Source of the DNA: an uncultured Candidatus Saccharibacteria bacterium
Lineage (GTDB): Bacteria > Patescibacteriota > Saccharimonadia > Saccharimonadales > UBA4665
Direction: 5' to 3'
Assembly (NCBI GenBank): GCA_964387505.1
Contig: CAYLWF010000021.1
Span: 12-64,011 of the forward strand
Length of the DNA stretch: 64,000 bases
Part shown: positions 20,969-50,287 of the stretch, piece after piece
Layout of the letters: every line of letters begins with the position of its first letter
How positions within the stretch are numbered: position 1 is the stretch's first letter
The notes under the pieces: model-generated
Database searches by the model: none
Told to the model about the DNA's origin: nothing
What the model saw: the letters and a program-made list of their open reading frames with translations, nothing else
Program-made: the position numbers and the translations under genes

Positions 20969-22600
20969 TTAGTGGCCGAAGAAGCCGCGGCCGAGTTTAT
21001 CGGGGAGCATGGCTACCGAGACGTTTTTGTCAGTGAGTACTTCGACAACCTCAGGGTCTTTCACGGAACCAGATGAGGTCAAAATAGCGGTGATGCCGGC
21101 ATCCGCCAGTACGAGGGGGCCATCAGGAAACGGGAAGAAACTGTCGCTGTAGGCGGCTGCACCCTGTACGTCGTGATCGCGACTGGTGGCGCGCGACACG
21201 GCAAGCTTGGCTGCGCCTACCCTGTCCTGCTGGCCGACGCCGTTCCCGAGGAGCTGACAGTCTTTCACGATGGTGATGGTATTGCTATTGCTGGTAGAGC
21301 CAACCGCCCACGCGAGCACGAGGTCTTTTTTGGCTTGCTCGCTGAGCTCACCGTGCTGCTCCATATAGTCAGCGGCAAAGTCGAGTACAAATGTGTAGTT
21401 TGGCTGCACGAGCATACCGCCGCGTACGTTACGGTAAATGGGTGCTGTTTCTAGTGTGTCTTTCGTGAGTCCGGCGAGCGCTGGGTTGGTGACGATGCGC
21501 AGCTTGGCGCGGCCAAGGATCTCCATGGCTTCTGGCGTGACGCTACTCCCCACGACGCCATCGAGCAAACGGTTTTGCCCCTCCGGCATGTGGTGGGTCA
21601 TGAGTGCCGTAGCGACTTCGGCATCTATCGGTCCGTTGATTATGACGACACCACCAAAGATAGCGATTTCGTCGCCTTCCAGCATCCGCTTCACGGCCTC
21701 GACTGCTGTTTTGCCGGTGCCAGCACCACAGGCGTTGCCATGCTTCACGCCCACGGCTATCGCAGGGACTTTGCCGAAGTTGGTTTCGTAGCCAGCGGCA
21801 ATGTGCGTGACGGTCATAAGCAAGCGGTGCATGTCGGTTTCGTTTATGTAGCTCAGTTCCCAGCCTTTTTGGTGCGTGAACTGGTCAAGCCCGAGTGGGT
21901 CTGTAGCGACGCGGTTATCGGCGTAGAGTCCGGCCGGTGTTTGCCAGGGGTTTTCGCCGTACTTCGTGGGGGCTACGCGTCTGCCTATCCACCCGGCTAC
22001 GTTTTCCCCGCCGTGGTAACGAGCACTGATCATGATGTATCGGGCGCACTCGTACTCGGCTACGGCGCACAATTTGTCGCGGAATGATTTTTCATCTTGT
22101 TTTCCATCTGTTAGCCACTGCAGCACTTCACTTCGTTGGTCGGCACGAGAGAGCACAATTCGTCGGGCTTTTGCACCCGCTCTCAGCATGGTTGGGCCAC
22201 CGATGTCGGTTTTTTCTATCACGCTTTGCAGAGTGGCTTGCCCGCTCGCGATCTCTTCTTCGAGTGGATACATATCTACTGCGACGAGATCGATAAATGG
22301 AATGCCTCGGTCTTTCAACTCTTGCAAATCCTCTAGCTTATCCGCATCCGCCAGGAGGCCGCTATGAATTTCGCGAGAAAGTGTTACGACCCGGTGGCCG
22401 AGTATGGCCTCGCCGCCAACGAGTTCTGCGACGTCCGTAACGGGTACGCCGGCTTCTGCTACGACCTTGGCTGTGCCGCCAGATGAAATGATGTTCCAAC
22501 CCAGCTTATGTAGGCCCTTCGCAAACTCGGCAATACCTGTTTTGTCGTAAACCGAAAGCAACGCGTTGTTTTGAGTTTTTAGTAAGTGGTCGATGGACAT
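20969..22600 (-). CDS. purH: Bifunctional AICAR transformylase / IMP cyclohydrolase
   Basis: 543 aa. It has an N-terminal MGS-like domain (ALLSVYDKTGI) and a C-terminal AICARFT domain (GVKHGNACG, SDSFFPF). Confidence 0.9.
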   Translation of the reverse strand: MSIDHLLKTQNNALLSVYDKTGIAEFAKGLHKLGWNIISSGGTAKVVAEAGVPVTDVAELVGGEAILGHRVVTLSREIHSGLLADADKLEDLQELKDRGIPFIDLVAVDMYPLEEEIASGQATLQSVIEKTDIGGPTMLRAGAKARRIVLSRADQRSEVLQWLTDGKQDEKSFRDKLCAVAEYECARYIMISARYHGGENVAGWIGRRVAPTKYGENPWQTPAGLYADNRVATDPLGLDQFTHQKGWELSYINETDMHRLLMTVTHIAAGYETNFGKVPAIAVGVKHGNACGAGTGKTAVEAVKRMLEGDEIAIFGGVVIINGPIDAEVATALMTHHMPEGQNRLLDGVVGSSVTPEAMEILGRAKLRIVTNPALAGLTKDTLETAPIYRNVRGGMLVQPNYTFVLDFAADYMEQHGELSEQAKKDLVLAWAVGSTSNSNTITIVKDCQLLGNGVGQQDRVGAAKLAVSRATSRDHDVQGAAAYSDSFFPFPDGPLVLADAGITAILTSSGSVKDPEVVEVLTDKNVSVAMLPDKLGRGFFGH

Positions 22601-22633
22601 TTATGCTCCTTTCATTGAATCATGTGGCATGAA

Positions 22634-23035
22634 TCATGAATTATGTAATTTAGTGTGCTGTTTGGTGGATTTAAGTAAACCGGTCAGTAATTTATGGGTA
22701 ATGACAGATTGTTCGGCAAGATTTTCAAAATTATCACAAGATATATAGCCGACATCCCTGCTTACAAGAAGTTGATTTTGAACTTCTGTCAATGAACCGT
22801 GTGCCATAGTGAAAAAATGCGCCTTGTCGGCGTAAGATAATCTCGAAAAACCCTCGGCAATATTCGAAGTTATTGAAACAGCCGCACGTCTAATTTGACT
22901 CGTCAATCCAAACTGCTCATCACTCGGAAAAGTTTTCGTTATTCGATATATGCTAACGACTAACTTGTGCCCTTCCTTCCATGTATCTAAATCGGTAAAG
23001 CTTCGTATGCTTTTTTTACCAGATTCATGATTCAT
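22634..23035 (-). CDS. Four-helix-bundle protein (23S rRNA intervening-sequence protein family)
   Basis: 133 aa. It has family-typical motifs: [39 protein letters not shown] and [10 protein letters not shown]. It is AT-rich and sits between purL and purH. Confidence 0.75.
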
Positions 23036-26000
23036 GATTCATGATTCCTTTCAACTGTCCAATTGTACGCATTACTAAACATCTGGAGCCAGGGGGAGTC
23101 GGCAGGCCAGTCAGCAGGGTGCCAGCTAAGTTGGCGGGTCATGAAGCCGCGCTCTGGGTGCGGCATCATGATGGTGGCGCGGCCGTCTGGCGTGGTAAGT
23201 GCGGTGATGCCCTCTGGTGAGCCATTTGGGTTGGCTGGATAACTTTCGGTTGGCGCATGATTTCCGTTCACGAACTGAGCGGCAATGAGGCCGGATTTCA
23301 CCGCGGATTGTTTTTCTGCCTCTGATGCAAACGCCGCGTAACCCTCGCCATGCGCAACGGGTATCGGCAGTACAGATCCTTCCATGCCAGTGAAAAAGAT
23401 AGACGGTGTTTTATTGAGACGTACCTGCGGTAGGCGTGCTTCAAAGCGTTCGCTCTTGTTCTGGAGGAACTGTGGCCACGTCTCTGCGCCAGGGATAAGC
23501 TCTTTTAGCTGCGATAGCATTTGACAGCCGTTGCAGACGCCGAGGCTGAACGTATCGGGCCGTTCAAAAAAGGCTTTGAACTGCGCCCGAAGCTTTTTGT
23601 CGAGCAAAACTGTTTTTGCCCAGCCGCCGCCAGCCCCTAGCACGTCCCCGTAACTGAAGCCGCCGCAGGCGACGAGGCCGCTGAAGTCTTCGAGTTTCGC
23701 AGTGCCTTGCAACAGGTCGTTCAGGTGTACATCTATAGCAGTGAAGCCTGCGCGTGTGAAGCCTGCGGCCATCTCTATCTGGCCATTGACACCCTGCTCT
23801 CGTAGTATGGCAATTTTGGGCTTGTCTTTAGCAGCTCCATCTTCTCTAAGAGGGGCTCGCCCCTCTTGAGGTGCTTTCGTTGCTTCGCTCGAAAGCAGCC
23901 TCCACTCCCCCGCTCGCTGTTCGCTCGCGCTCGCGCTGTGCGCTCGTTCGGCCGCTTGCGCGGCCTCAATACGGTAAGATTGTGGAAGCTTGGGGGTCAG
24001 GCCGGGGTCGGCGTCGTCAAGAATCAGCGCGTATTCTTGGTCGGCGCAGGCGGGGTTATCGCGGAGTTTTTGTATGCGGTAGCTTGTTTCGGCCCACCAT
24101 TGTTCAAGCTGGCCGCGGGTATTTTGGTAGACGGTTTTACCGTTTTCTTTGAATGTAATCGTCTGTTTTGCCGCTGGTTCACCGAGGGCATATACATTGT
24201 CGCCAATCACCTGGGATACATATTTTTCATCTGATGATTTCACTTGGATGATGACGCCGAGTTCTTCGTTGAAGAGTTTTGCGAGGGTCACGGCACTGTC
24301 ATTCCGAGCTTGTCGAGGAATCCTGTTGGTGGCTGTCTGACGGGATCTTTCGACTTCGCCTGCGGCTTCGCTCAAGATGACAGATGTGGGAAGTTCTGTA
24401 AGGTCGATGTCGAGGCCACAGCGACTCGCGAAGGCTATTTCGCATAGAGCGGTAAAGAGGCCGCCGTCTGAACGGTCGTGATAGGCCATGATCTTCCCCT
24501 CTGACTTGAGCTTTGTAAATGCAGTAAAGAACGATTGCAAGATATCTGGGTCAGCGTCTGGCGTGTCTCCACCGGTCTTGCTGTACACTTGCGACAGTGC
24601 GGAACCGCCGAGGCGAGTATGTCCGTCAGAAAGGTCGACGAAGAGTAGTACAGAATCGACTGACATGTCGAGCTGTGGCGTGAGTGTTTTTGAGACGTCG
24701 CCGACTGGGCTGAAGCCGGTGATGATAAGGCTGAGCGGCGAGGTAACAGACTTGGCTTCTCCGCCATCTTGCCAGGTTGAGCGCATACTGAGCGAATCTT
24801 TGCCGACGGGTATGGTGAGACCGAGGGCTGGGCAAAACTCTTCACCCACGGTGTGCACGGTGTCGTAGAGCGCTTGGTCTTCGGTACCGACTCCGGCGGC
24901 GGCCATCCAGTTGGCGGAAAGCTTTATGTCGCTGAGTTTTTTGATGTCCGCGGCCAGCATGTTCGTGACGGCTTCGGCTATTGCCATTCGACCTGAGGCA
25001 GGTGCGTTTGTAACGGCCAGCGGCGTACGTTCGCCCATGGCCATGGCTTCGCCCGCCTCGGTGTCGAACGCAGCGGCAGTCACGGCGACATCACTCACAG
25101 GCACCTGCCACGGGCCGACCATTTGGTCGCGGGTGACGAGGCCAGTTATGCTGCGATCGCCAATAGTGATGAGGAATTTCTTGCTCCCCACAGATGGCAC
25201 GTGCAGAACACGTTTAACCGCTTCCTCGATATCAATCCCCGAGGCGTCAAAGGCTGTATCTTTCGCTGCTGCCCTGCTGAACTCTCGGGTTATTTTGGGC
25301 GGCTTGCCAAAAAGCGTGCTCATGGGGAGATCGACGGTGTTATTGCCAAGTAAACTGTCGTGTACGACCAGACGATCTTCGGCCGTAGCTGTGCCGATAA
25401 CACTATATGGGCAGCGTTCTCTTTCGCACATAGTGGCGAATTGCTCGACATCTGCCTCGCGGAGGCCGATCACATAGCGTTCCTGGGCTTCATTACACCA
25501 GATTTCCATAGGTGACATACCGAGGTCAGCGTTTATGATGTCTCGTAGCTCGACAGTTGCGCCGAGTCCGGCATCGTGTACGAGCTCTGGCACGGCATTG
25601 CAGTAGCCGCCTGCCCCGATATCGTGGATCATGACGATCGGATTATCGTCTCCGCTCGCCCAGCACGCATCGATGACTTCTTGGCAGCGGCGCTCCATCT
25701 CTGCATTGCCGCGCTGTACTGATGCGAAGTCCAGGTCGGCGTGGCTTGCCCCGCTCTGCATACTACTGGCGGCACCACCACCGAGGCCGATCAGCATGGC
25801 TGGGCCGCCGAGGATGATAATTTTATCGCCAGGCTGGAGTTTGCCTTTCTGAACATGCTGGTCGCGGATGTTGCCAAGGCCGCCTGCGATCATAATCGGT
25901 TTGTGGTAGCCGCGAACATGTTCACCGTCGTGTTGTTCATATGTACGGAAATAGCCGGTGAGATTTGGACGGCCGAACTCATTTGCGAAAGCCGCACCCC

Positions 26001-27093
26001 CGAGTGGGGCGTCTATCATGATGTCGAGTGGCGAGGTGATCCGGTCTGGTTTGCCGTATGGCTTTTCCCAGGGCTGTGGCGCGTCAGGCAAGTTGAGGTT
26101 TGAGACGCTGAAGCCGGCTAGTCCCATCTTGGGCTTGGCGCCTCGGCCTGTTGCTCCCTCGTCACGAATCTCGCCGCCTGTGCCAGTGGCTGCGCCAGGG
26201 AATGGTGCGATGGCTGTAGGGTGATTGTGCGTCTCGACCTTTATGACGCTATGGATGGGCTCGCGGTGAAAGTCGTATCTGTGGGTGGTGGGGTCCGGGA
26301 AGAAACGGCCAGCTTCTGGCCCGCGTAGCACGGCCGCATTGTCGCTGTACGCGCTCAGCACATCTTCGCCACTCAATTCAAACGTGTTGCGAATCATTTT
26401 GAATAAACTTTTTGGCTGCTTCTGGCCGTCTACCACCCAATCTGCGTTGAAGATTTTGTGCCGGCAGTGTTCGCTATTTACCTGGCCAAACATCATGAGC
26501 TCCGCATCAGAGGGGTTGCGACCCAAGCCTGTATATGCGTCTACGAGATAATCAATTTCATCTGCGCTGAGCGCGAGCCCTTGCGTGCTATTGGCCTTTT
26601 CGAGTGCCACTTTGCCGCCTTTGAGTACATCAACGATGACGAGCGGTTTTGGCTCGGGATGGCTAAAGAGTACTTCTGCCGCTTTGATCGAGTCGAGTAC
26701 ACTCTCGGTCATGCGATCATGTAGTAGCGGTGCAATGTCTTTCCACTTGTTCGAGTCAATATAATACGCGATACCACGTTCGATGCGCACAATGCTCGTG
26801 AGGCCTGCATTGTGAGCGATATCTGTTGCCTTCGATGACCATGGTGATATGGTGCCCGGGCGCGGCACGACCAAATATAACTCGCCCGTTCGCTGACTTA
26901 GGTATGGTGTGTCGTATTTTAGTAGCGTCGTGAGCTTTGTAGTATCTGTGCTAGAAAGCGGCTTTTTTGTATCAACAAAGTGAACAAATTCTGCGCTGAC
27001 GTTGTTTATTGACCCATCGACTGACTGCAATTTTTTGAGCAAATTTTTTGCCCGAGAGTCGGACAGTGCATTTATCCCGTCATAGATTTTCAC
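23032..27093 (-). CDS. purL: Phosphoribosylformylglycinamidine synthase, large single-chain form
   Basis: 1353 aa. It has the full FGAM-synthetase body and a C-terminal glutaminase domain ([21 protein letters not shown]). It carries two extra in-frame segments (see findings). Confidence 0.92.
24296..24383. mobile_element. MITE-like palindromic element inserted in frame within purL
   Basis: Terminal inverted repeats are CTGTCAT...ATGACAG, with an internal ATTCC(n11)GGAAT hairpin. It encodes ...[31 protein letters not shown]... . A related element lies at 50211..50287. Confidence 0.6.
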
Positions 27094-28199
27094 TACCGTA
27101 CCTCCAAAGTCTCTGCGGTAAATGTCAGGTTTTTCGGTTTTATGACAACTTGTTTTTCGCCTCGTTTGACGGTTCCGCCCCTGATAGCTTTCACTCCATT
27201 TTTATTTGCAAGCTCGATCACTTTGGTTGCCCCTGACTCCGGTACAAACAGCGCAAAGCCCACGCCCATGTTAAAGTTTCCGTACATCTCTGCGTCGTCG
27301 ACGCCCGATTCTTGTTGCATGAGTGCAAATTCTGGTTGTGGTTCGAGAATTGTGTCAATCTCGTAAGTGAATGCTGCATTTGCCCGCATGAGTTTTCGCC
27401 AGCCGTGACCGGTTACATTTACCATGTAGTGCGGCACGATCCCTGCCTCTAGCACGTCACGTACGAGTGAGACGTACAGGTGAGTTGGTGTTAAAATGGC
27501 CTCACCAAATAGTCGACCATTTGGTAATTTTATCTCATATAATTCCGTGTTTTTCTCGTACAAATGCCGTACAAAGGAAATGCCATTTGCGTGTATGCCA
27601 CTACTTTCTACCAGTATGATCGCATCGCCTTCAGTAAGCTTATCTCCCAGTACCAGTCGCTCTTTTGGGTTGATGATACCGACTGCCGATCCGCCGAGAT
27701 CAATTGTGTCTGGGTTGATGATGCCTTTGAGCGCTGGCGTTTCGCCGCCACCCCAGGTTGCACCGATAGTCTGGCAGGCCTGCGCCCAGCCGTTTACAAG
27801 ATCTGTTGCCCTCTCGCGGTCATTCATCCACGCACCGTCACCGAGCGCAAAGTAAGCATTGACGACTTGCGGAAGCGCTCCGACGACGATGAGATCGTTC
27901 ACGATCATGGCGACCGTATCTTGTGCGAGCGAGTCATAGTACGTCTTGCCGGTGACTGTTCGCATGGCATCGGCAACGAGATTTTTTGTGCCGAGTCCCT
28001 CTACGACGAGCGCGCGGTAAGCATCGGCTTCCTCCCAGACGTACGCAGATTCGCCCCGGCTTGCACTCAGTTCGCTCGCCCCGAAATAGTTCAAATTCGG
28101 TGCAGTTGATATTGCAGCCTTCTGTGCGAGGACTTTCACCGGATCCATCGCACTATAATCAACGCCCGTTTGCGCGTAGGTCGGTGTGGCTTTGCTCAT
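27093..28199 (-). CDS. purM: Phosphoribosylformylglycinamidine cyclo-ligase (AIR synthase)
   Basis: 368 aa with an AIRS N/C domain pattern. It lies between purE and purL, and its stop overlaps the purL start by 1 nt. Confidence 0.8.
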
Positions 28200-28717
28200 G
28201 AGGTTTTCTCCTGTAAGTATGTTTCCCAGCCTTGGGCGTGGAGTTTAGTGTCGGCGGTAAGGACAGCGTCGTGCTGGCGGGTGCGGAAGGCCGCGTACTT
28301 TTGTGTGAGTTCTGGGTTTAGGAGCGAGAGGATTTCTATGGCCAGAAGTGCGCCGTTGCGGGCGCCATTTTCGGGCATGGTTGCGAGTGGTACACCGGGC
28401 GGCATTTTTATATTGCTCCAAAAGGCTTCGTGGCCGTGGTGGTCGCGCTTGATGGGTATGGCTATAACGGGCAGTACCGTGCTGCTAGCTGTCATGCCAG
28501 GCAAATGCGCTGAACCGCCTGCCCCGGCGATGATAACCTTGAGCCCCCTCTCGGTTGCGGTTCGTGCGTACTCCTCCATGACATCTGGCGTGCGATGTGC
28601 TGAAATGACCCTCGTTTCGTAGGCCACGCCAAACTCGTCGAGCACTTTTGCAGCTTCGCTCATAACATCGAGATCGCTATCTGACCCCATTATTATTCCT
28701 ACTAACGGATTACTCAT
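28196..28717 (-). CDS. purE: N5-carboxyaminoimidazole ribonucleotide mutase
   Basis: 173 aa. Motifs are VGIIMGSDSDL and AGGSAHLPGM. Confidence 0.9.
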   Translation of the reverse strand: MSNPLVGIIMGSDSDLDVMSEAAKVLDEFGVAYETRVISAHRTPDVMEEYARTATERGLKVIIAGAGGSAHLPGMTASSTVLPVIAIPIKRDHHGHEAFWSNIKMPPGVPLATMPENGARNGALLAIEILSLLNPELTQKYAAFRTRQHDAVLTADTKLHAQGWETYLQEKTS

Positions 28718-29382
28718 GCCAGCTCCTCCAGTATGGTTAAAACTTGTTTTAAAGACGAAATAAGATGGTCGGGCTTGGTGGCAACGAGTCGGGTTCGCGA
28801 GCTAAAGCCCCCAGTTATTGCAATGGTGTGCAGACCAAGGCTGCTGCCGATAGACACTTCTTCGGCAGTGTCGCCAACGATTACTACCTCGTGTGGGGAA
28901 TAGTCACTGTCCTGCAAAAACGCCTCTAGCCGGTGTTTTTTGCCACTGTGATGTACTTGCTCTTTGTCACCATTGGCGAGTACTTCATCAAATAACTCGC
29001 TTATGTTCAATCGGCCAAGTTGGAGGTAAATGCCTTCTAAGGTGTGGTTGCTCAAAATAATAGACGATATGCCAGACTCCTTTAGGGATACAAGGAGTTT
29101 TTGCGCTCCTTCTCGTAGATGCGCATGTGCTGCAAGCGGCTCATAATGGCTGTGAAATGCATGGCTTATCTGTTCGCTTTTTTCCAGAAACTCTTCTTTA
29201 CTGACGCCCATGTTTATGTAGTTGTTGACGATAGGCACTTCAAAGACTTCACGGTATTCATCAAGGCTGACAGGGCTAAGATTTAGTAGAGGTAAAACAG
29301 CTGTATTTACGGCGTCGACGGTGATTTGAGCGTCGTCAAGCAGGGTGCCGTTCCAGTCCCAGACAACGAGCTTAATGCTCAT
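28714..29382 (-). CDS. HAD-superfamily hydrolase
   Basis: 222 aa. Motif I is VVWDWNGTLLDD (the second Asp is replaced by Asn). Motif II is ILSN and motif IV is VGDTAEE. It has 4-nt overlaps with both purK and purE. Confidence 0.7.
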   Translation of the reverse strand: MSIKLVVWDWNGTLLDDAQITVDAVNTAVLPLLNLSPVSLDEYREVFEVPIVNNYINMGVSKEEFLEKSEQISHAFHSHYEPLAAHAHLREGAQKLLVSLKESGISSIILSNHTLEGIYLQLGRLNISELFDEVLANGDKEQVHHSGKKHRLEAFLQDSDYSPHEVVIVGDTAEEVSIGSSLGLHTIAITGGFSSRTRLVATKPDHLISSLKQVLTILEELA

Positions 29383-30545
29383 ATGTCGAGGGCCTTTCGG
29401 GCGCGGCGAGCGAGTTTTTGGGCTTCTTCGACGCTGTCTGCGGTGACCGTTATATGGCCCATTTTACGGTCTACTTTGGTCGGGCTTTTGCCGTACAGGT
29501 GCAGACTTGCACCCGGGATGGCCAAAACATCAGAGGTGCCTTTTACTTTGGTTGGGCCATCGCGCTCGCCAAGAATGTTTATCATGACGGCAGCGGGTAC
29601 AACGAGACTTGTGTCTCCTAGGGGTAAACTGGCTATAGCGCGAATATGTTGTTCAAACTGACCCACTCGGCAGGCCTCAGTGGTGTAGTGACCGCTATTG
29701 TGGACGCGTGGAGCGATTTCATTCACCAGAACGTCGCCAGACTTTGTCAGGAATAGTTCTATGCCAAAGGTGCCGGCGCCGCTCAGAAGTTCAGCGACCT
29801 GCTGGGCGACGGTTTCGGCCTTTTGGATTATTTCGGCGGAAACGGGTGCTGGCACGAGCACCTCGGTGCAAATATTACGTTCGTGGACTGTCTGGACAAT
29901 GGGGTATAGAGCAACATTGCCTTGCATGTCGCGTGCGACCATAACGGCGAGCTCCCGCTCGAAATCTATGAGACCTTCAGCATAGAGTGCCTTACCGTCA
30001 AACTTTTGGAGGGCATCTGCCAGCTCCTTTTCGCTACGTACAACCATATTGCCGCGACCGTCGTAGGCGCCATGCCGTGTCTTTACTATCATCCGTCCGC
30101 CAAAATGCTGGAGGGCATCCCGGGCGGAACTCTCCCCTGTTATTTCGGCAAATGGGGCTAAGGGTACACCCCTTTCATGCAAAAATTGTTTCTGGGCGAA
30201 CTTGTCCTGAATGAGGCGGATGGTGGCTGGAGATGGGTTGATGACTGCCCCGCTCTGCTCTAGTTTGCCGAGGGCTTCGGCGTCGAGGTGTTCAATCTCT
30301 ACGGTTATGTAGTCTGCTTCTGCGGCGAGTTGTTTGAGGGCTCCTTCGTCATAAAGGTTTGCGACTATTTGGCGGGCGCCGACTTGTTCGGCTGGGCAGT
30401 GTTCGCCGGGGTCAATGACGGTGACGTTGAAGCCGAGGGGTTTGGCGGCGAGGGTGAGCATGCGGCCGAGCTGGCCGCCGCCGACAATACCAATCACAGG
30501 TGTCTTCGCCTCTCCCTGTTGCATACGTGTAATTGTACCGTACAT
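29379..30545 (-). CDS. purK: N5-carboxyaminoimidazole ribonucleotide synthase (ATP-grasp)
   Basis: 388 aa. It has IGIVGGGQLGRM and an ATP-grasp body (NEIAPRVHNSGH). Confidence 0.88.
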   Translation of the reverse strand: MYGTITRMQQGEAKTPVIGIVGGGQLGRMLTLAAKPLGFNVTVIDPGEHCPAEQVGARQIVANLYDEGALKQLAAEADYITVEIEHLDAEALGKLEQSGAVINPSPATIRLIQDKFAQKQFLHERGVPLAPFAEITGESSARDALQHFGGRMIVKTRHGAYDGRGNMVVRSEKELADALQKFDGKALYAEGLIDFERELAVMVARDMQGNVALYPIVQTVHERNICTEVLVPAPVSAEIIQKAETVAQQVAELLSGAGTFGIELFLTKSGDVLVNEIAPRVHNSGHYTTEACRVGQFEQHIRAIASLPLGDTSLVVPAAVMINILGERDGPTKVKGTSDVLAIPGASLHLYGKSPTKVDRKMGHITVTADSVEEAQKLARRARKALDI

Positions 30546-30702
30546 ATGTCCAAATTCCCATAGTATTCCATGCGTATCGCATGTTAAGCAAAAGACAAAT
30601 TGTACCTTATTAAGGACAGTGAAACCCTCGTTGAAAGCATTGTCTTAAGAGCGAGTGGCAAAAACCCTTAACTCTTGTTACGCAACTCTGTATACTGAGG
30701 GT

Positions 30703-31662
30703 ATGAGTGGAAAAATTCTTGAGGGAACGGATTTTGTGTTGCCTGATCAGCAGGCGGTGTATCACGGTAAGGTGCGCGACGTGTATGACTTTAGTGACAG
30801 GCTTGCGCTTGTTGCGAGCGACCGCTATAGCGCGTTTGACCGCATATTGGCAACGATACCAAACAAAGGAGCGTTGCTGACGGCGCTGAGTCGCTGGTGG
30901 TTTGAGCAGACGGCGTCAATCGTGCCAAACCATATCATTTCCTATCCCGACCCAAATGTCATGTTATGTCGCAAGCTGGAGCGCGTGCCCCTGGAGATGG
31001 TGGTGCGGGGGTACATAACAGGCGTGACAAACACGTCGCTGTGGCACACCTATAGTGAAGGTCAGCGCAACTACGGCACGTTTACCCTGCCCGAAGGACT
31101 GAAAAAGAACGACAAGTTGCCCGAACCAGTCCTTACCCCAACCACGAAGTTTGAAAAACATGACCGCAACCTCACCCCAGACGAAGCCGTAGCCGAAGGC
31201 CTGCTTGCCCGCGAAACGTGGGAGCAAGTGAGCAACATTGCGCTCGAACTCTTTCGTTTTGGCCAAAAAACTGCCGAAGCAAAGGGGTTGTTGCTGGTCG
31301 ACACGAAGTACGAGTTTGGGGTAGATAGCGATGGAACCATTATCCTGATAGATGAAATTCACACCCAAGATTCGTCTCGTTACTGGTTTGGTGAAACGTA
31401 TGCCGAGCGGATTGCCGCGGGTGAAGAACCGGAAAATTATGACAAAGAGTTTTTGCGCCTCTGGTACAAAGAACGCTTTGACCCGTACGCAGAAGATAGC
31501 GCCGCTCCGCCTGTGCCGGCCGAGGTGATTGCCGAGCTTGAGCGCCGCTACCGCTACGTGTACGAAACACTGAGTGGCCAGACGTTTGTGCCACTAGATA
31601 ATGGAGACATTGCGGGCAGGATTGAGAAGAATGTGTCCGAAGTTCTGAAGGAGCCAAAGTGA
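30703..31662 (+). CDS. purC: SAICAR synthase (long form)
   Basis: The track ORF starts at GTG 30655. ATG 30703 follows a GAGGG RBS. SAICAR synthase motifs are YHGKVRDVY, SDRYSAFD and LVDTKYEFG. Confidence 0.88.
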   Translation: MSGKILEGTDFVLPDQQAVYHGKVRDVYDFSDRLALVASDRYSAFDRILATIPNKGALLTALSRWWFEQTASIVPNHIISYPDPNVMLCRKLERVPLEMVVRGYITGVTNTSLWHTYSEGQRNYGTFTLPEGLKKNDKLPEPVLTPTTKFEKHDRNLTPDEAVAEGLLARETWEQVSNIALELFRFGQKTAEAKGLLLVDTKYEFGVDSDGTIILIDEIHTQDSSRYWFGETYAERIAAGEEPENYDKEFLRLWYKERFDPYAEDSAAPPVPAEVIAELERRYRYVYETLSGQTFVPLDNGDIAGRIEKNVSEVLKEPK

Positions 31663-31667
31663 GACCA

Positions 31668-31766
31668 GCTAGTGTGCAAGGTCAGACCTCGCACAAAGAA
31701 ATTATGATTTTTGCAAATCTCAAGATTTATAAAACCTTTGTGCGAGGTCTGACCTTGCACACTAGC
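31668..31766. repeat. 31-bp perfect inverted repeat with a 37-nt AT-rich spacer between purC and purB
   Basis: The arms are 31668..31698 (GCTAGTGTGCAAGGTCAGACCTCGCACAAAG) and 31736..31766 (its exact reverse complement). Confidence 0.9.
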
Positions 31767-31789
31767 ACCCCGCTGAAAGGAGTCACTCA

Positions 31790-33175
31790 ATGAGCTTGCA
31801 GCCACTTAATCTACCGGAACCAACAGAAGATAACCGCTTCAACAGTATTGACCCGCTCGACGGGCGCTACTATGACCCGGAAATTGCGCGGTACCTTTCG
31901 GAGCGCACGCGCATACTGACGCAGGCGCATGTGGAGGCAGCGCTTGCCTACGGCCTGGCAGAGTTTGGGCTGTGCAGTCAGGAAGTTGCCCAGCAGATTG
32001 ATGCGGCCAGTCGAAAAATCCGCGTCGAAGATGTGGCAGAAGAGGAGAAAACTACTCGCCACGATGTCAAAGCTATCGTGAACACCATTAAAAAAGAACT
32101 GCCCGAAACCGCCCAGCCGTATGTGCATTTTGGCGCCACGTCGTATGACATTGTGTCGACGGCCATGAGCCTGCAGCTGCGCCAGGCGGTGCGCGAGCTA
32201 GTGCTGCCCCGTCTGCAAATGCTCCAAAAAACCCTTGTTGAGCTAGCTGAACGCTACGCCGAAACAGTGCAGATTGGCCGCACGCATGGCCAGCACGCCG
32301 TACCAATCACGTTTGGCTACATGTTGGCAACGTATGTGCAGCGTCTCGGCGACAGTATGCAGCATCTCGACACGCTGGCTGGCGAACTGAAGGGCAAGTT
32401 TTCGGGTGCGGTTGGGACGTACAATGCTATTTCGGTGTTTGTGGATGACCCGCTGGCGTTCGAGAAAACAGTGCTTGGGTACGTGGGGCTCGAGCCCGCA
32501 CCTGCGGCGACGCAAATTGTCCCGGCCGAAGGCTACATACGCCTGCTCGACGAGCTGGCTATCACGGCGGGCGTCATGGCAAACCTCTCGCACGACATGC
32601 GCAACCTCCAGCGTAGCGAAATAGGCGAAGTGCGCGAACGCTTTGAACCCGGTCAGACTGGTTCCAGTACCATGGCGCACAAACGAAACCCCTGGAACTT
32701 CGAAAACATCATCGGCATGTGGAAGCAAGTGACAGCTCAAGTGGTAAATGCAAATCTGAACATATCCAGCGAGCACCAGCGCGACCTCACCGACTCTTCT
32801 TCCGCCCGTTTTTACACCATCCCCTTTGCGTCCGTCGCTGCTATGGCAAAACGCCTGAATGATGTTATGAGCAAAATAGAAGTTGACGAAGAAGCCATGC
32901 AGCGCAACTTGTACCTCACGAAAGGCGCCATTGCCGCCGAACCGCTATACCTCCTGCTCGAAAAATACGGGCACACCACCGCGCACGAAGCCTCAAAGGC
33001 ACTGGCGCACGAGGCAATGGAACGAAACGTACCCCTGTACGAAGTGGCATCCCAGGCGGAAGCCATCGCCACCTACTGGGCAAAATTCACCGACCACGAA
33101 AAAGAACTCATTCGCTCACCCGAAACCACCTACACCGGCCTCGCCGCCAAGAAAACGCGTACCATAGTGCAGTAA
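31790..33175 (+). CDS. purB: Adenylosuccinate lyase
   Basis: 461 aa. It has the fumarate-lyase signature GSSTMAHKRNP, and an AAAGGAG RBS lies upstream. Confidence 0.92.
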   Translation: MSLQPLNLPEPTEDNRFNSIDPLDGRYYDPEIARYLSERTRILTQAHVEAALAYGLAEFGLCSQEVAQQIDAASRKIRVEDVAEEEKTTRHDVKAIVNTIKKELPETAQPYVHFGATSYDIVSTAMSLQLRQAVRELVLPRLQMLQKTLVELAERYAETVQIGRTHGQHAVPITFGYMLATYVQRLGDSMQHLDTLAGELKGKFSGAVGTYNAISVFVDDPLAFEKTVLGYVGLEPAPAATQIVPAEGYIRLLDELAITAGVMANLSHDMRNLQRSEIGEVRERFEPGQTGSSTMAHKRNPWNFENIIGMWKQVTAQVVNANLNISSEHQRDLTDSSSARFYTIPFASVAAMAKRLNDVMSKIEVDEEAMQRNLYLTKGAIAAEPLYLLLEKYGHTTAHEASKALAHEAMERNVPLYEVASQAEAIATYWAKFTDHEKELIRSPETTYTGLAAKKTRTIVQ

Positions 33176-50210: not shown

Positions 50211-50287
50211 CTGTCATTCCCGCGAAGGCGGGAATCCAGTCAATAAGAAATCTCAATTCTGGATCCCAGTCTTCGCTGGGATAACAG
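50211..50287. mobile_element. Intergenic MITE-like palindromic element
   Basis: It reads CTGTCATTCCCGCGAAGGCGGGAATCC...CCCAGTCTTCGCTGGGATAACAG. It has terminal inverted repeats and two internal hairpins. The architecture matches the purL insert. Confidence 0.6.

Follow-up and report, generated by a model that had tools for sequence, protein, structure and literature searches.

Three kinds of short repeat are relevant to the element described here. Rickettsia palindromic elements (RPEs) are short palindromic repeats, a minority of which lie in frame in housekeeping genes, according to the summary in PMC10969869 of Ogata et al. 2000 and 2002. The Neisseria Transformation Sequence (NTS) and the wider group of Ssn-related motif (SRM) repeats, described in 2025, are hairpins flanking small single-domain GIY-YIG nucleases (SsnA, CAX49033.1, 94 aa) in the layout NTS-ssnA-NTS (Nat Commun 2025, PMC11893778). 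The Ssn enzymes modulate transformation and cut single-stranded DNA (ssDNA) at the repeat; the integration of transforming DNA in Neisseria is modulated by NTS repeats, and Rickettsia is among the SRM-rich genomes (PMC11893778). Neither Patescibacteria nor repeats within coding sequence are mentioned in that paper. REPINs are doublets of REP hairpins, that is, two inverted hairpin modules and a spacer (PMC3337134), copied by a RAYT (Y1) transposase. We analysed a palindromic element within purL, in a 64,000-nt stretch of DNA (the window) from contig CAYLWF010000021.1 (C21) of an uncultured Candidatus Saccharibacteria bacterium. Its genome, called G000 here, is an assembly from wastewater with 36 contigs and 1.07 Mb; other G numbers are genomes compared with it, and C denotes a contig. 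The element behaves like an RPE; at the molecular level, the NTS/SRM repeats of the Ssn nucleases are closest to it, and we do not assign it to the REPIN/RAYT system. The purL segment is probably a copy of a double-hairpin repeat family resembling NTS/SRM, inserted in frame in an ancestor and tolerated as a loop, with orphan copies in G000.

An earlier note, made from the sequence alone, had placed a palindromic element at 24296-24383 in frame in purL. We found the termini, the hairpin fold and, in the translation, the peptide that the note quoted. The gene and the parts of the element are as follows.

23032..27093, minus strand: purL, large single-chain FGAM synthase (1353 codons; translation of 1353 aa)
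24296..24383, minus strand: purL palindromic repeat element, 88 nt, imperfect palindrome, read through in frame, about aa 904-933
24296..24322, plus strand: short-loop arm, CTGTCAT + ATTCC-GAGC..CGAGG-AAT + C; nhmmer arm match at C21:24307-24333
24323..24343, no strand: spacer between the purL arms, matching the spacer of the element that flanks an ssn-like gene (our label for a small GIY-YIG gene) in G016
24344..24383, minus strand: long-loop arm with a 12-nt extra loop segment, coding for 14 residues; nhmmer match at C21:24394-24355

CTGTCAT opens the element at 24296, and ATGACAG closes it at 24383. Folding gave one long imperfect hairpin, with -37.3 kcal/mol for the plus strand and -29.1 for the coding strand. 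Relative to empty orthologues, the net gain was 93 nt, or 31 codons. Contigs of an independent wastewater study bridged the element without differences, which excludes an assembly artefact, and none of these contigs skipped it. An Rfam scan of the window gave zero families at the gathering score and only two sub-threshold chance matches near the element. An intron or intein was rejected because there was no RNA-family signal and 31 residues are far too small for an intein.

Copies on other contigs were sought by short-word BLAST and two rounds of nhmmer. A search of the 1.07-Mb genome with a hidden Markov model (HMM) of the arm detected nine loci holding 15 arms in all, and no E-value fell between 0.002 and 3.5. 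The DNA of the purL element matched intergenic copies with nhmmer E-values down to 1e-17. Each arm consists of a fixed (C/T)GTCAT, then the hairpin ATYCY-GA-GC, a loop and YC-GA-RGRAT, and a final C; two inverted arms about a variable spacer make up a full element, which measures 60-88 nt in G000. A 26-nt arm pattern, allowing up to 2 mismatches, had 8 matches in G000. It found arms in 20 of the 28 genomes of the genus (0-41 arms each) and in 77 of 401 sampled Patescibacteria genomes across the phylum, and gave zero matches in 23 genomes from the order's other genera. As the control, the pattern was reversed, and it then had zero matches in every genome searched. The nine related loci and the empty control indicated that the purL element is no chance palindrome, and the copies in G000 and across the genus bear out the expectation of the earlier note. 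The stems covary: among 33 distinct arms, pairs 6-23, 7-22, 8-21 and 11-18 were preserved by double changes, for example ATTCC/GGAAT, ATCCT/AGGAT and ATCTT/AAGAT, or GAGC..TCGA vs GACC..TGGA. A loose regular expression for two-arm layouts returned mainly false positives and served only for the flanks of known copies, and searching the genus with the 33-aa peptide of the insert lacked the sensitivity needed for counting coding copies.

To read presence and absence of the insert, twelve purL genes from the genus were aligned as DNA at codon level. Four (G000, G016, G015 and G003) had a site filled at the same codon, seven (G007, G004, G014, G017, G008, G009 and G018) had a clean empty site, and G002 carried a different 24-nt palindrome at the insertion site. 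The net insert sizes, 93, 78, 117, 93 and 24 nt, were all multiples of three. In the purL tree, whose branch support was weak, every filled taxon fell within one 8-taxon clade and the four outgroup species were empty, so that one gain followed by two or three losses would be the simplest reading. Conservation of the segment in distant PurLs, which the note had named as a sign of an ancestral loop, was not found. The span from I896 to N942 was 14-19 residues in most of 101 diverse large PurLs vs 47 in G000, and the alignments of most large PurLs, from a HMMER search of 1.8 billion representative proteins, broke exactly at the insertion site.

PurL residues 170-1353 were modelled with AlphaFold from an input alignment of 58 sequences; a shallow alignment of 11 sequences gave a predicted local distance difference test score (pLDDT) of 38.6. 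The model had a mean pLDDT of 90.9 and fitted the Salmonella PurL structure 1t3t with a template modelling (TM) score of 0.90 and a root-mean-square deviation of 2.1 Å. The pLDDT fell below 50 only at residues 908-928, within the purL insert, and at residues 1044-1088, a second insert described below. Residues 908-928 have a strand (893-897) on one side and a helix (927-941) on the other. The insert thus occupies a fold-compatible position, as in RPEs, and forms a low-confidence loop in an otherwise confident model; it would be read through as a disordered 31-residue surface loop. The in-frame copies, the presence and absence in orthologues and the disordered loop in the model together support the proposal that this is an RPE-like insertion tolerated as a loop. 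The ratio of nonsynonymous to synonymous substitution rates (dN/dS) of purL was 0.07-0.09 at a dS of 1.7-2.4. This strong purifying selection indicated that the insert-carrying gene is functional. The earlier note calls purL essential, which claims more than was observed: the selection is strong, but most genera of the order are without the gene.

The purL copy is one of several in coding sequence. A second in-frame copy in G000 lies outside the window, in a Y-family DNA polymerase gene (C28:7148-8500), with the insert CHSERSRGISSYPITDETLRQAQGSRKPD; this insert was absent at that site in G007, G037 and G038. A further G000 copy lies just upstream of glmM. At a second purL site, about aa 610, five relatives have in-frame arms of the same family. 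The purL sites considered across the genus lie at about aa 344, 610, 905 and 1040. Relatives also carry in-frame arms in the genes of a methyltransferase, an NAD(P)HX-dehydratase-like protein and ribosomal protein S5, in the last case in the C-terminal tail. Of the 31 loci examined, the majority were intergenic. In the polymerase gene, relatives carried other inserts at the same site and at about aa 195-205.

The earlier note had also likened the purL element to another element in the window:

50211..50287, no strand: intergenic two-arm element of the NTS-type subfamily, with CTGTCAT, hairpin, ATCC, spacer and inverted copy

The two have the same layout, but they belong to different subfamilies. 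The arm HMM does not detect the element at 50211-50287, and closer relatives of the purL copy sit on other contigs. This comparison led to the link with NTS and Ssn. The left arm at 50212-50239, TGTCATTCCCGCGAAGGCGGGAATCCAG, equals the NTS pattern CGTCATTCCCGCGMAVGCGGGAATCYRG with 1 mismatch at the first base and also fits the SRM search pattern; an arm at C12:8023-8050 likewise fits the NTS pattern with at most 1 mismatch. The purL arms did not fit the published NTS pattern when up to 1 mismatch was allowed, and only 4 arms in G000, all NTS-type, fitted the SRM pattern.

Beyond these matches, the family shares several traits with NTS and SRM repeats. The published hairpins are oriented by a non-palindromic 5' flank, CGTCAT; all arms here open with (C/T)GTCAT, which gives them an orientation, and then enter the stem, and an ATTCC..GGAAT stem followed by C occurs in both systems. 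Small GIY-YIG genes, with open frames of 76-162 residues, were present in 17 of the 28 genus genomes. In G016, a single-domain gene of this kind encoding 94 aa (L151:1602-1883) has a full element and an extra arm directly upstream, and another arm overlaps its 3' end, so that arms of the purL type flank this putative ssn gene as in NTS-ssnA-NTS. That upstream element has the spacer ATCCCGTCAGACAGACACCGACGAGATT, a match to the spacer ATCCCGTCAGACAGCCACCAACAGGATT of the purL element. Small GIY-YIG genes with arms within 100 nt were also found in G017, G037, G003 and the distant G346. Across the genus, genomes with more arms tended to have more small GIY-YIG genes (rho 0.55). As with NTS and SRM, copy number varied widely among related genomes. 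Two differences stand against these likenesses: the purL-type arms have an internal tandem G-A mismatch and fall outside the published SRM pattern, and G000 has no ssn-like gene. Nuclease action on these arms is putative.

The likeness to RPEs, as these are summarised in PMC10969869, is one of behaviour. In both cases there are intergenic copies and an in-frame minority in unrelated housekeeping genes, with the extra peptide at fold-compatible positions; there are several copies per genome, and their presence varies between related species. The elements described here differ from RPEs in belonging to another phylum, in measuring 60-100 nt vs about 100-150, and in that conservation lies in the DNA hairpin and not in a peptide, the same arm being read in different frames. 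Since Rickettsia is among the SRM-rich genomes, a real relationship between the element and RPEs is possible. REPINs likewise have two hairpins inverted about a spacer, and both are non-autonomous (PMC3337134, PMC3116915); in contrast, the arms here flank no RAYT-like gene, and arm-rich genomes can be without Y1 transposases.

On the reading that we regard as probable, a copy of this family would have entered purL in the ancestor of a subclade of the Saccharibacteria genus and landed in an indel-tolerant loop of the FGAM-synthetase domain. It would have survived because its net length was a multiple of three and it brought no stop codon in frame. Sister species would have lost the insert or never had it, and G000 would have lost its ssn-like gene, leaving about nine copies as orphans. 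The analysis shows that the segment belongs to the family, that it is present in frame in some orthologues and absent from others, that it lies in a loop, that the stems covary and that arms stand beside ssn-like genes in relatives; translation of the insert, the order of gain and loss and the recognition of the arms by an Ssn-type nuclease are inferred.

Several results weigh against this reading. Neither the purL site nor the other copies showed a target-site duplication, and no copying mechanism was seen. The description of the element as "MITE-like" (like a miniature inverted-repeat transposable element) in the earlier note suits its shape with inverted termini, but with neither a target-site duplication nor a parent transposon found, the term describes shape only; a non-exhaustive search found no parent insertion sequence (IS). 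None of the purL-type arms fitted the published degenerate SRM pattern, and raw SRM matches in G000 numbered 6, vs 6 in the reversed genome. UvrC was the only GIY-YIG protein of G000, where no ssn-like gene or remnant was found, and the roughly nine copies of this genome therefore look like orphans. G018 and G014, with five small GIY-YIG genes apiece, had only 0-3 arms when searched with the 26-nt pattern. The correlation across the genus between the number of arms and that of small GIY-YIG genes was computed over related, non-independent genomes and so overstates the link, and the small GIY-YIG genes are putative members of the Ssn clade (cd10448). Finally, arms were 38/40, 35/40 and 27/29 identical between species, vs about 70% for the flanking purL DNA and 42-50% for its third positions. 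Arms so much more conserved than their flanks are not explained as a passively decaying relic.

Two observations narrow the causes of this conservation. G016 reads the same arm in another frame, which indicates that the DNA is conserved and not the peptide. The long-loop arm of purL in G000 was identical to the orthologous G015 arm at 38/40 positions and was closer to it than to any paralogue in G000, which argues against homogenisation within the genome. The remaining candidates are a constraint at the nucleic-acid level and a recent exchange of the purL segment between species.

The first candidate would make the purL hairpin no neutral relic, because it would be kept for a role at the nucleic-acid level, either as an ssDNA binding or cleavage site that shapes recombination after uptake or as an mRNA structure. 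The arms, 93-95% identical between species vs 42-50% at flanking third positions, the different frame in G016 and the covarying stems are consistent with such a role, and in Neisseria the NTS modulates the integration of transforming DNA (PMC11893778). However, G000 has no ssn-like nuclease, seven relatives do well insert-free, and the counts come from few sites; a recent transfer of the purL segment between species would give the same pattern. We therefore hold this explanation to be possible but doubtful.

A single ancestral event could also be replaced by independent insertions at the same purL codon in several species, the codon being a target hot spot. The 24-nt palindrome of G002 at this site resembles a palindrome flanking a RAYT-like gene of G000, several insertion sites recur across species in purL and in the polymerase gene, the high arm identity could mean recent arrival, and the purL tree has weak branch support. 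Shared details of the inserts point the other way: a derived 12-nt loop extension of the left arm is common to G000, G015 and G003, the right arm and its junction are common to G000 and G016, and the G000 purL arm is nearer to its G015 orthologue than to any G000 paralogue. We hold a hot spot to be possible but doubtful.

It is very improbable that the purL element is a REPIN copied by a RAYT transposase. The published definition, two inverted hairpin modules and a spacer, is matched (PMC3337134), and RAYT-like genes, 1-7 per genome, occur in every one of the 28 genus genomes. G000 has five RAYT-like (Y1 transposase) genes of 205-257 aa (C6:13414-14085, C4:47306-47926, C4:62200-62817, C9:36556-37179 and C25:15012-15785), of which at least the first four have their own perfect palindrome on both sides, different for each gene. 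However, none of 25 RAYT-like genes (5 in G000 and 20 in arm-rich relatives) had a GTCAT arm within about 1 kb. In addition, G346, G114 and G348, which hold the most arms outside the genus, gave no match to a Y1 transposase, and the ends of the canonical IS200 of G032 are unrelated to the arms. On these grounds, RAYT/IS200 was rejected as the mobilising enzyme. In the literature, we found nothing linking REPIN/RAYT or palindromic coding elements with Saccharibacteria; REP/RAYT in Patescibacteria did not turn up, and the arm sequence was in no paper text. An ancestral PurL loop, suggested by the spans of 29-57 residues at the insertion site in a few diverse PurLs, or a chance palindrome unrelated to other copies is scarcely credible, as the insert is absent from 7/12 genus orthologues and most of the 101 diverse PurLs, and its DNA matches intergenic copies with nhmmer E-values down to 1e-17.

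Other forms of the arm were seen in relatives. In G016 and G032, a high-copy subfamily (L127-L156) is sharply bounded at about 100 nt, and sequence beyond the arms is conserved; its ends read CACTTTTTGAT/GTCATCTT...GGAATGAC/AATGTGATAAAA, with slashes marking the boundaries, and the purL copy is without these outer ends. G346, a distant, complete Patescibacteria genome, has 57 nearly identical single arms in two regions (C1:106000-120200 and 742800-842400). Within a region almost all point the same way, and some form tandem series with a period of 52 or 68 nt; such single clustered arms are unlike the two-arm elements of the genus. An IS200-type element of G032 (L111, C1:57000-61500) is 681 bp long, occurs in three copies 99.9-100% identical and lies 16 nt from the NTS-type arm CTGTCATTCCCGCGCAGGCGGGAATCC.

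The purL gene holds a second insert:

23830..23964, minus strand: second repeat-derived in-frame insert in purL, about aa 1044-1088, in the linker before the glutaminase domain

This insert was absent from diverse PurLs. Its DNA has matches on C8 and C29, and its peptide matches within other long open reading frames of relatives (G007:C2, G016:C44, G012:C47 and G018:C109). It holds a hairpin, CTTTCGAGCGAAGCAACGAAAG, whose core, GAGCGAAG, is common to the arm family. Heptamer-like repeats build further in-frame inserts of relatives (L002-L020, L118-L126), which read ...ESRVKSQELRV..., ...RDMSHETR... and ...RVLNLESR..., and inserts of this type turn up repeatedly in the polymerase gene as well as at the purL linker. 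These repeats appear to form a family of their own, with a relationship to the GATTCAT heptamers that lie by the purL stop, near window 23022-23048.

With purH, purC and purB, purL forms a purine operon at window positions 20969-32000. Identity between the large single-chain PurL and that of Gammaproteobacteria is about 60%, and in the sample of the order that was searched this PurL was found in one genus only, two other genera giving distant matches. This identity and the occurrence in one genus suggest that the purine pathway may have been gained by horizontal transfer into a Saccharibacteria lineage.

RPE-like behaviour, long a curiosity of Rickettsia, is seen here in a Saccharibacterium and recurs across its genus at several sites of a single gene, and repeats of the NTS-like kind, described as flanking genes, can reside inside them. 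Because the repeat can be tied to the Ssn nucleases, a candidate enzyme family first described in 2025, what recognises or spreads coding palindromes becomes a testable question. We put forward, tentatively, that the in-frame palindromes of Patescibacteria genes, and perhaps RPEs too, could be recognition hairpins of Ssn-type GIY-YIG ssDNA nucleases, spread and kept at the DNA level even within coding sequence because they control the fate of incoming ssDNA in naturally transformable, host-dependent bacteria. If this were true, the extra protein loops would arise as a side effect of a system that works at the level of DNA. In practical terms, such inserts lengthen and break up alignments of housekeeping genes from ultra-small bacteria; pipelines for gene trees and for annotation ought to recognise these inserts.

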